In this document: positions 20,921 through 51,975 of the stretch, one piece after another | Layout of the letters: each line of letters starts with the position of its first letter | Position numbering within the stretch: position 1 is the stretch's first letter | Source: an uncultured Candidatus Saccharibacteria bacterium | GTDB lineage: Bacteria > Patescibacteriota > Minisyncoccia > Phycocordibacterales > CSBR16-119 | Direction of reading: 5' to 3' | Assembly (NCBI GenBank): GCA_964355515.1 | Contig: CAYHDV010000002.1 | Coordinates: forward strand, 6,622-70,621 | DNA: 64,000 bases | Position numbers and translations under genes: made by a program | Notes under the pieces: model-generated | The model's database searches: none | Told to the model about the DNA's origin: nothing | The model's input: the letters and a program-made list of their open reading frames with translations, nothing else

Positions 20921-20995
20921 TGGAATGCTATCCGTAGCATTCCTCACCTCCACCAACTTCGCTAATCTGCTCAAAATAAAAAATCCTATCCTGAG

Positions 20996-21068
20996 AGCCA
21001 GAGAGAAGATTCGAACTCCCGACCTTCGCTTTACAAAAGCGTTGCTCTACCAACTGAGCTACTCTGGC
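20996..21068 (-). tRNA. tRNA-Thr(UGU), 73 nt, CCA not encoded
   Basis: Minus-strand sequence GCCAGAG-TA-GCTC-AGTTGGTA-GAGC-A-ACGCT-TTTGTAA-AGCGA-AGGTC-GGGAG-TTCGAAT-CTTCT-CTCTGGC-T. It has a 7-bp acceptor, canonical D-arm, U33/A37, anticodon TGT and a 5-nt variable loop. Confidence 0.85.
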
Positions 21069-47153: not shown

Positions 47154-47270
47154 AAAGCCAAGCAGTTGGCTTTCTTCCCGTCGCTCAAAAAATCAAAAGC
47201 CGCCTTTTCAGGCGACTTAAGATTTTTACGAGCTCCGGGAGCAGGGATCGAACCTGCGACCAATCGATTA

Positions 47271-47850
47271 CACATTTTCCTAATGTTTCCAAAAGGGGTG
47301 GACTATATCATATCCAGTCATCATTTCTGATGCGATGGACCGAGGCGCTTCGACCACGCTTTTCGTGGGCTACTCCCTTGTGGGATAGTCTCTGAACCTT
47401 CAATTGGATTTCTCCAAAAGCTTGGCTGCTGATTACCCACAGCATTACCTGTTTGGGCTTCCAGACAATTCACCTCGTTTTCAACCTACATTTCTATAGG
47501 AAGCTGCGTTACACCGTCGTGCACTTCAGCATGACAATTTGCACAAAGTAAGACACATTTGTCTAGTTCTTTTTGTACTTTTATCCATGCTCTTGTAACA
47601 CCTCTTGCAGAAATTCCAAAAGATTTTTTGGAAGGATCGATATGATGGAAGTTTAATGCCCTTGATGATTTTTTATAACCACAAATGACACATACACCTC
47701 CTTTATATTCGATCGATTTCGTCATGAGAAGTTTCCTTCTTTTGACAACTGCTTTTTTAAGGTATTCTGCACGATCAGCATATGTTCTTTTTTCTTTGCT
47801 TGGCATATACACTGTATTCTACCATGCTTAGAAAAAGGGAACGTGAGTTC
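47271..47850 (-). ncRNA. Group I self-splicing intron (580 nt) with embedded HNH ORF
   Basis: Conserved core elements on the minus strand: GGTTCAGAGACTA (P7 5' strand/R element) and GATATGATATAGTCCACC (S element/P7 3' strand). The intron ends in G before the 3' exon and the 5' exon ends in U. Confidence 0.75.
47486..47812 (-). CDS. Intron-encoded HNH homing endonuclease
   Basis: CVICG…NFHHIDPSKK…LLCANCHAEVHDG, an HNH zinc-finger nuclease motif. Lies entirely inside the group I intron. Confidence 0.8.
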   Translation of the reverse strand: MYMPSKEKRTYADRAEYLKKAVVKRRKLLMTKSIEYKGGVCVICGYKKSSRALNFHHIDPSKKSFGISARGVTRAWIKVQKELDKCVLLCANCHAEVHDGVTQLPIEM

Positions 47851-47946
47851 ACAGTCGATTGCTCTACCGCTGAGCTATCCCGGAATACTGGCATATCTAA
47901 TTAAAGATACTAAAATATTCTATCAAAAAAGTGGTAAAATGCAACC

Positions 47947-50356: not shown

Positions 50357-50644
50357 ATGGAAATACAAATTGAGAAAAAATACTCTAGACTTGCAATAAG
50401 CAAAGAAGTGGAGGGTCACAAGGGAGTAAGTGTTATCTGTTATAAAAATACAGGGAAACCTATAGACATTGGTCCGGGGGCTTGTTACGTGAGAGCTGTG
50501 GGATCCGAGCTCTTTACCAAAAGATTCTTCAAGGTTGAGCAATCCAAAGGAAAGTGGAATCTTCTCGTGAGAGAGCTTCATCATCTGGAATTTAAATCTG
50601 TTCCAGAGTTAAATCTACTCTCTATGGAGTTTTACTTCGTGTAA
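50357..50644 (+). CDS. Hypothetical small protein (uncertain)
   Basis: 95-aa ORF ending at the strong bidirectional terminator 50645..50679 (aaaaagccccgcgccgttggcgcggggcttttt). Confidence 0.3.
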   Translation: MEIQIEKKYSRLAISKEVEGHKGVSVICYKNTGKPIDIGPGACYVRAVGSELFTKRFFKVEQSKGKWNLLVRELHHLEFKSVPELNLLSMEFYFV

Positions 50645-50676
50645 AAAAGCCCCGCGCCGTTGGCGCGGGGCTTTTT

Positions 50677-51975
50677 CTATTTTTGTTTTTTAATATAATC
50701 AGCCATCTTGTCTATATCGAGAGTTTTTTGTGACCGAGTTTTCATGTCTCGTACAATCACAGAACCTTCGAGTGCTTCCTTGTGGCCAAAGATAAGTACT
50801 TGATTCACTCCAAGCTTTTCTGCAATTCCGAGCTGTTGTGACAATCCATCTTTTGAAAGTGAGTGAGCTACTGGGATTTTTGCATTTCTAAGTTCTTCTA
50901 TAATAGCGAGGCTCTTTAACTTTGCTTCTTGTCCAAGCTGGATAAAGTATACCTGAGGCTTTTTCTTTACTTTTGGTTTGATATCTTTTTCTGTTACTTC
51001 GATTATTCTATCTACTCCAAAAGCAAACCCAACAGCAGGAACCTCTTTTTTACCACCTATAATTTTTGCAAGATAGTCGTACCTTCCTCCACCTCCTAGA
51101 GCAAGAGGTTTTATTTCTTCTCCGGATTCAGTTTTTTCTGGTGTGGTAAAAAATTCAAAAACAGTATGACTGTAATAATCAAGACCTCGAACCAGCTTGT
51201 GATCTATTTCATATTCAATTCCCAATTGATCAAGATATTCTAGAACCTCCTTGAAGTGTTTCTTGCTTAGAGTATTAAGAGAGGATATAGACTGAGGCGC
51301 TTCCTTGTTTACCTCGATGGTCTTTTCATCCTTTGAGTCGAGGATTCGCATTGGATTTGTCTTCATCCTTTGTCTATCAGTTGCCCCTAGTTTGTTTATA
51401 TGTTTTCGATAATACGCAGTGAGTGTCTTTAGATAATCCTTTCTTGAATCAGCATCACCGAGTGAGTTTATTTTTAGAGTAATTTGTTTTATACCTGACT
51501 CTTTTAAAATAAGATGAGCTAGATGAATTGCCATCACATCAGACACAGTCTTTGTGCTTCCAAGTATTTCAACTCCAAACTGCCAGAACTGCCGGTATCG
51601 TCCTCTTTGAGGTTTGTCGTGTCGATACACAGGACCAAAAGTATAAAACATCACTGGCTGTGGTTGAGTATGCATCCCGTGCTCTATGTAAGCTCGCATA
51701 ATCCCGGCTGTTGTTTCTGGGCGCATTGCCAGCTTGTCTGTACCTTTTGTTTTGAGAGTATATATTTCTTTGTCTACAATATCAGTTCCTTCTCCTACAC
51801 CTTTTAAGAACACATCTTCTTGTTCAAGAGTTGGAGTCTCAATTGGTTGAAGTCCATAGTATTCACAAATCTCTTGAGCTTTTTCATAAAAACCTTGAAG
51901 AGCATAGTATTGATCTCCCATCATGTCTCTCATCCCTTTCACTGATTGTAATTCTTTTTTGTTATCGTTTGCCAT
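50677..51975 (-). CDS. hisS: Histidyl-tRNA synthetase
   Basis: MRPETTAGIMRAY, FGPVYRHDKPQRGRYRQFWQFGVE and a C-terminal anticodon-binding domain. Confidence 0.92.
   Translation of the reverse strand: MANDNKKELQSVKGMRDMMGDQYYALQGFYEKAQEICEYYGLQPIETPTLEQEDVFLKGVGEGTDIVDKEIYTLKTKGTDKLAMRPETTAGIMRAYIEHGMHTQPQPVMFYTFGPVYRHDKPQRGRYRQFWQFGVEILGSTKTVSDVMAIHLAHLILKESGIKQITLKINSLGDADSRKDYLKTLTAYYRKHINKLGATDRQRMKTNPMRILDSKDEKTIEVNKEAPQSISSLNTLSKKHFKEVLEYLDQLGIEYEIDHKLVRGLDYYSHTVFEFFTTPEKTESGEEIKPLALGGGGRYDYLAKIIGGKKEVPAVGFAFGVDRIIEVTEKDIKPKVKKKPQVYFIQLGQEAKLKSLAIIEELRNAKIPVAHSLSKDGLSQQLGIAEKLGVNQVLIFGHKEALEGSVIVRDMKTRSQKTLDIDKMADYIKKQK

Follow-up and report, generated by a model that had tools for sequence, protein, structure and literature searches.

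A tRNA-Asn(GUU) gene of a Patescibacteria-like genome interrupted between positions 35 and 36 by an IA-type group I intron with a predicted HNH homing-endonuclease gene

Group I introns between positions 35 and 36 of tRNA-Asn(GUU) are a published class in Patescibacteria. Nakagawa et al (mSystems 2026, PMC13011429; preprint July 2025, 10.1101/2025.07.03.662931) described 15 of them in 95 complete Patescibacteria genomes, classed them as IA (the class of nearly all Patescibacteria tRNA introns, and of 25 of the 28 introns at 35/36), and reported HNH genes of family PF01844 in four of the 15. In this complete-genome survey, endonuclease-bearing IA introns at 35/36 occurred in Patescibacteria only. 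According to the same paper, the insertion type had been listed earlier, as Asn.4Ug, by Williams 2020. The ORF-less intron of GCA_016700035.1 (Saccharimonadia) self-splices in vitro at 35/36, and changing its terminal G to C abolishes the reaction (PMC13011429). We analysed a 64-kb stretch of DNA, which as a whole we call the window, that contains a locus of this kind.

Group I introns with an ORF are also found in the anticodon loop of other bacterial tRNAs, such as the cyanobacterial tRNA-fMet intron with its homing-endonuclease gene (I-Ssp6803I), a tRNA-Arg intron with a LAGLIDADG gene and a tRNA-Leu intron with an HNH gene. They share this architecture with the window's intron but interrupt a different tRNA, at 33/34, 36/37 or 34/35, and are mostly of class IC; the endonucleases of the tRNA-fMet intron and its like belong to the PD-(D/E)XK or LAGLIDADG family, unlike the one in the window. 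Two further likenesses are the introns of Anabaena tRNA-Leu and Azoarcus tRNA-Ile. These (Reinhold-Hurek and Shub, 1992) are self-splicing group I introns in the anticodon loop whose exon alignment is helped by the anticodon stem, as we propose below for the window. However, they are IC3 introns of about 200–250 nt, lie at other positions and have no ORF.

We scanned species-representative genomes with a pattern made of P7, the J8/7 core and the tRNA 3' half, which gave at least 120 loci. Among the matches listed, 118 resolve as tRNA-Asn(GUU) with an intron at 35/36; 31 of these 118 introns are endonuclease-sized (450–602 nt), and about 25 of the 31 contain an intact homologous HNH ORF. The scan shows that the element is far commoner than the complete-genome survey suggested. 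The original prediction had regarded an ORF-bearing intron in tRNA-Asn as unusual, which does not agree with either the published class or the 31 long introns among the matches listed. The window's copy is an ordinary member of that class and brings no new principle.

Its closest described counterparts are the four HNH introns of Patescibacteria genomes GCA_023898525.1, GCA_016699425.1, GCA_001029735.1 and GCA_000503835.1 (PMC13011429), which interrupt the same gene at the same site. Like the window's intron, they have a GCAGC guide sequence, P7.1 and P7.2, and the GAUAUAGUCC core; their lengths are 568–606 nt (580 nt in the window), and their HNH proteins are homologous to the window's over the whole length at 52–66% identity. 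Both intron and protein of the window can be aligned end to end with those entries, the closest being GCA_023898525.1 (66% protein identity), and the window's own sequence is absent from the Table S3 entries of that paper. All helices of the window's ribozyme can be aligned with the spliced GCA_016700035.1 intron, which has the same P1 logic and terminal G. That intron measures just 234 nt, its P1 loop is 5 nt long and it lacks an endonuclease gene; the published in vitro splicing concerns an ORF-less relative, whereas the window's intron carries an ORF. We make one small addition to the published description, which does not give the location of the ORF: in the window, its place is the P1 loop, with an overlap into the guide sequence and P2. 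A second point, the presence of endonuclease-bearing copies in genomes labelled as other phyla, is a lead that depends on MAG labels.

Such introns also matter for annotation. Standard tRNA finders miss the split tRNA-Asn or call it tRNA-Thr (the same miscall is reported for ARAGORN and tFind in PMC13011429), so the genomes appear to be without tRNA-Asn and completeness estimates are distorted, as has already been pointed out (PMC13011429).

The window is identical to metagenome contig NODE_43 of ENA assembly ERZ4201063, and two further samples yielded the same interrupted tRNA-Asn on assembly, at 100% identity (three samples in all). The GC content of the window is 37.6%, and its best protein matches are loci labelled Paceibacterota, Parcubacteria and Patescibacteria. 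By gene order and these matches, the host looks like a CPR/Patescibacteria genome, in line with the CPR-type host first proposed. The interrupted gene and its surroundings are laid out as follows.

47851..47884, minus strand: 5' exon of tRNA-Asn(GUU), positions 1–35 with nucleotide 17 absent (sequence; ARAGORN on the joined exons)
47271..47850, minus strand: group I intron, subgroup IA-type, 580 nt, with the omega G at 47271 (RF00028, helix map, covariation)
47233..47270, minus strand: 3' exon of tRNA-Asn(GUU), U36 to discriminator G73, CCA not encoded (sequence; ARAGORN on the joined exons)
47187..47218, minus strand: hairpin and T-run resembling an intrinsic terminator, 15 nt past the tRNA 3' end

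The two halves, 580 nt apart, have the coordinates and sequence originally claimed. The 5' exon (47884..47851, minus strand, UCCGGGAUAGCUCAGCGGUAGAGCAAUCGACUGU) is 34 nt long and ends in CUGU, with U35 as its last base. The 3' exon (47270..47233, minus strand, UAAUCGAUUGGUCGCAGGUUCGAUCCCUGCUCCCGGAG) is 38 nt long, begins with UAAUCG and has the discriminator G at its end; G73 is an identity element of tRNA-Asn. Joined into a 72-mer, the exons are called by ARAGORN as tRNA-Asn(gtt) with a complete cloverleaf and the 7-nt loop CUGUUAA, in agreement with the original prediction, and the ligated product is predicted to read ...CUGUUAAUCG... across the exon junction. One detail needed correction: the 3' half had been said to begin with A36, but the base at 47270 is U36, and the intron lies between U35 and U36. 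All four pairs of the anticodon stem covary in a 26-sequence alignment (see below), and the joined exons are identical to the uninterrupted tRNA-Asn of two related metagenome contigs (L136 and L178) at 61–64 of 72 positions. The interrupted gene is thus tRNA-Asn(GUU) of a Patescibacteria-like bacterium. No uninterrupted tRNA-Asn gene was found elsewhere in the 64-kb window, where the sole uninterrupted tRNA gene is a complete tRNA-Thr(UGU) at 20995..21068 (minus strand). Neither default ARAGORN nor the Rfam tRNA model detected the split gene in the genomic DNA of the window, and no consensus promoter was called upstream of it on the minus strand.

The intron starts with GAACUC, ends in AUGUG and is exactly 580 nt long; its terminal G (47271) and the core elements GGTTCAGAGACTA and GATATAGTCC are present as predicted. 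The Rfam model Intron_gpI (RF00028) matches 47279..47560 on the minus strand with 55.5 bits (gathering score 50, E 2.3e-11, model positions 1–253). When the whole window was scanned with Rfam at permissive settings, neither a second intron nor another RNA exceeded a gathering score. The helices, all on the minus strand and taken from the helix map, are listed below from the 5' end of the intron.

47839..47850, minus strand: hairpin GAAC-UCAC-GUUC at the extreme intron 5' end
47504..47508, minus strand: internal guide sequence 5'-CGCAG-3' (pair of intron nucleotide 1 covaries in relatives)
47485..47500, minus strand: P2 hairpin CCUAUA-GAAA-UGUAGG (six of six pairs covary)
47341..47477, minus strand: outer span of P3, 47477..47471 with 47347..47341 (covariation)
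47467..47461 with 47432..47427, minus strand: P4, inside P3 (covariation)
47457..47436, minus strand: P5/P5a, inside P3 (covariation)
47425..47397, minus strand: P6/P6a, inside P3 (covariation)
47390..47386, minus strand: P7 5' strand GACUA, inside P3
47385..47374, minus strand: P7.1, inside P3 (covariation)
47368..47354, minus strand: P7.2, inside P3 (covariation)
47313..47339, minus strand: P8, UCCA...UGGA with inner CAUCA-GAAA-UGAUG (covariation)
47301..47305, minus strand: P7 3' strand UAGUC, partner of GACUA at 47390..47386 (invariant in 26 of 26 sequences)
47279..47296, minus strand: P9 hairpin CCUUUUG-GAAA-CAUUAGG (covariation)

Apart from mismatches in P9, the helices P1 to P9, including P7.1 and P7.2, are all base-paired in the window. 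P1 is formed by CGCAG with the first intron base (G1), U35 (in a G.U wobble), G34, U33 and C32. P7, the guanosine-binding helix, is a pseudoknot with P3. The first intron G (47850) belongs to the GAAC hairpin and can also form the intron-side pair of P1, opposite C47508. A GAAC...GUUC hairpin directly after the splice site is seen in many relatives, with or without an ORF (e.g., L019, L049, L032, L042 and GCA_023898525). Bases on the 5' side of the guide sequence showed no P10 pairing with the 3' exon.

We assessed the fold with an alignment of 26 sequences, consisting of the window's intron without the ORF, the spliced GCA_016700035.1 intron and 24 ORF-less relatives. From this alignment, RNAalifold retrieved the anticodon stem, P1 to P6a, P7.1, P7.2, P8 and P9, and P7 was added afterwards. 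Standard pairs occupy 94.7% of cells, vs 33–45% when partners are slid by 1–3 columns, and the covariation score is 0.57, vs 0.07–0.14 with slid partners. Compensatory changes occur at 43 of the 63 pairs. Together with the RF00028 score, this covariation bears out the proposed group I intron. P7.1 and P7.2, between P7 and the 3' strand of P3, are the hallmark of subgroup IA and make the intron IA-type.

The sole long ORF within the intron lies on the minus strand.

47486..47806 (from the ATG at 47806, 106 aa) or 47486..47812 (from the GTG at 47812, 108 aa), minus strand: HNH homing-endonuclease ORF (ORF call, Pfam, homologues)

The ORF matches Pfam HNH (PF01844) with 27.5 bits at a cut-off of 21.4, which supports the 108-aa HNH ORF of the original prediction; an NCBIfam search gave no meaningful match. 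Its product is 48–67% identical to 23 homologues from other tRNA-Asn introns among the matches listed, and retains 25 of the 25 residues invariant across them, including CxxC, HH, CxNCH and the last His. The His/Asn/His and Cys4 zinc motif is present, with C39, C42, H54, H55, C88, N90, C91, H92 and H96 conserved. From these comparisons, the ORF is an intact HNH gene and its product a predicted homing endonuclease. Our literature search found no biochemical data on any member of this HNH family, only the survey by Nakagawa et al and its preprint.

The distance from the guide sequence to the intron 3' end is 237 nt in the window (median 235 nt in 115 introns among the matches listed). Median P1-loop length is 8 nt for the 84 ORF-less introns and 320 nt for the 31 long ones among the matches listed. 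As the guide-to-3'-end length is at the family norm and the excess is all in the P1 loop, the ORF occupies L1. Its last ten codons (...GUA ACG CAG CUU CCU AUA GAA AUG UAG) cross the guide sequence and P2, with the stop UAG (47488..47486) inside the P2 3' strand. This overlap could couple translation to RNA folding. The C-terminal "QLP" of the HNH proteins is encoded by the guide sequence and P2 (47486..47520, minus strand, in the window), and in longer ORFs J2/3 and P3 are read as the tail "VEKxGEF" (L004, L014, L024, L025, L037, L051, L060, L105 and L109). These conserved C-terminal tails probably reflect RNA rather than protein constraint.

The gene order tRNA-Asn / DUF167 / S30AE / fmt / def is shared with loci labelled Paceibacterota, Parcubacteria, Kaiserbacteria, Nomurabacteria and Patescibacteria, and at syntenic Patescibacteria loci the ORF of the intron is intact, decayed or absent. 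Five introns (L010, L045, L059, L090 and L098) have shortened HNH ORFs in otherwise conserved ribozymes, and L050 is a 450-nt intron without an ORF whose ribozyme is otherwise conserved; these six look like endonuclease genes in decay. We also scanned metagenomes with the DUF167 protein encoded next to the tRNA. The closest relative with this synteny is L124, whose flanking proteins are 72–90% identical to the window's (HisRS 90%). Its tRNA-Asn gene has the same place and orientation but is uninterrupted; 15 nt around the insertion site are identical to the window's, and the site reads TCGACTGT followed across the insertion point by TAATCGA. L124 is thus the intron-less allele in a related genome that a mobile intron would lead one to look for, and L136 and L139 are also intron-less at the syntenic tRNA-Asn site. 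Intron gain, ORF decay and absence at one site form the pattern expected of a homing element, and we consider the intron and its HNH gene to be such a putative mobile element.

Our preferred reading, in which we are highly confident, is that tRNA-Asn is cut between U35 and U36 by a mobile, self-splicing IA intron with an HNH gene, splicing and endonuclease activity both being predicted. In the precursor RNA, P1 would arise by pairing of CGCAG (47508..47504) with C32–U35 and the first base of the intron, U35 taking part in a G.U wobble. Free guanosine at P7 would then cut after U35, the terminal G (47271) would replace that guanosine at P7, and ligation of the exons would give mature tRNA-Asn(GUU). 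Instead of a P10 helix, the anticodon stem would keep the exons together, and this covarying stem probably aligns the 3' exon; stem-aided exon alignment is reported for the Anabaena pre-tRNA intron (reference 29 of PMC13011429). That the window's copy would splice is an analogy with the in vitro splicing of its ORF-less homologue. The HNH protein would most likely cut intron-less tRNA-Asn near the insertion site, with repair copying the intron in (homing); both this activity and its target are predictions from sequence.

It is unlikely that the locus is instead a decaying remnant, either a poorly splicing pseudogene or a merely inherited intron with an inactive endonuclease. Such a history would fit P9, in which five of seven pairs are formed and two U.U mismatches stand where relatives pair, a near-invariant Ser (in TRSW) that is Ala in the window's endonuclease, and the endonuclease decay that is common in relatives (the six introns named above). 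However, the core helices, the guide sequence, P7 and the terminal G are all intact, the ORF is full length with every invariant residue kept, the identical interrupted gene was assembled from three different samples, and there is no other tRNA-Asn within the 64-kb window.

It is very unlikely that the ORF product is mainly a splicing helper (maturase), or is recruited elsewhere, rather than a homing endonuclease. Among solved structures, the best match, 6me0_C (E 4.4e-5), would allow this, being the HNH domain of a maturase/reverse transcriptase from a group II intron, but it spans the HNH nuclease module only. Moreover, most intron relatives among the matches listed are without any ORF, one ORF-less homologue was spliced protein-free in vitro (PMC13011429), and presence, decay and loss of the ORF at a single site are what a selfish endonuclease gene would show.

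The remaining point is the exact splice site. At both 33/34 and 35/36, a U precedes the intron and a G closes it, which leaves the choice to the RNA structure. In ORF-less relatives, GCAG(C) is invariant directly ahead of the P2 hairpin, and its counterpart in the window is CGCAG (47508..47504). Two other candidate guide sequences, ACAGU at intron positions 36–40 and GUAG near the stop codon, were rejected because ORF-less relatives show the conserved GCAGC before P2. In 108 of 115 related introns among the matches listed, intron nucleotide 1 has its pairing partner in the base 5' of GCAG (shuffled mean 65, maximum 77), and the pair types in these 108 introns vary (A-U 44, G-C 37, C-G 14, G.U 11, U-A 2). 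This covariation fixes the register of P1, in which U35 and G form a wobble; the check set out with the original prediction, whether an internal guide sequence pairs up to U35 at the end of the exon, comes out in its favour, with CGCAG as the guide. A U.G wobble in P1 marks the 5' splice site of group I introns. As the wobble is at U35 and U33 is in a Watson-Crick pair, the splice site is 35/36.

That the gene is a split tRNA-Thr(UGU) with its intron two bases further 5', at 33/34, is hardly credible: intron-mode ARAGORN reports tRNA-Thr(tgt) i(33,580) and the U and G at that boundary permit it, but U33 faces A and the wobble G faces U35, the exons resemble uninterrupted tRNA-Asn genes and have discriminator G73, the window already has a complete tRNA-Thr(UGU) at 20995..21068, the same two-base miscall is documented, and the 35/36 junction of a homologue was sequenced after in vitro splicing (PMC13011429).

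Among the matches listed, tRNA-Asn 35/36 introns of 541–572 nt with homologous HNH ORFs occur in MAGs labelled as follows.

Acidobacteria/Acidobacteriota (MAG label): L014, L037, L063
Nitrospira group/Nitrospirota (MAG label): L024, L030, L098
Deltaproteobacteria (MAG label): L015, L090
Omnitrophica/Omnitrophota (MAG label): L076
Ignavibacteriaceae/Ignavibacteria (MAG label): L112

Their HNH proteins are 50–61% identical to the window's, inside the Patescibacteria range of 48–67%. In a rough neighbour-joining tree, these copies cluster together and are nested among the Patescibacteria copies. It is possible, although we would not count on it, that the HNH-bearing tRNA-Asn 35/36 intron is one element moving between Patescibacteria and unrelated phyla; the spread is a lead that rests on MAG labels and an unsupported tree. 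If episymbiotic Patescibacteria do swap the element with their hosts or neighbours, it would be a tracer of such contacts.

Several labels in the scan were themselves odd. L111 (CAYTFL010000170.1), 1,963 bp long and assigned to a bin named "Candidatus Woesearchaeota archaeon", has a bacterial-type tRNA-Asn with a 35/36 intron and is probably a mis-binned bacterial contig; Williams 2020 (bioRxiv 10.1101/2020.01.27.920355) suspected mis-binning in a similar Pacearchaeota case. In addition, "binchicken" TPA MAGs labelled Saccharibacteria, Gammaproteobacteria or Eubacteriales (including L021, L040, L057, L059, L072, L075, L113 and L120) have exons and flanks typical of other Patescibacteria groups, and organism names given there may not be reliable. 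Within the window, the interval 50586..50747 between def and hisS gave sub-threshold matches to Rfam amino-acid operon leaders on both strands (29–33 bits vs 50–55), and is most likely a hairpin or terminator rather than a leader.
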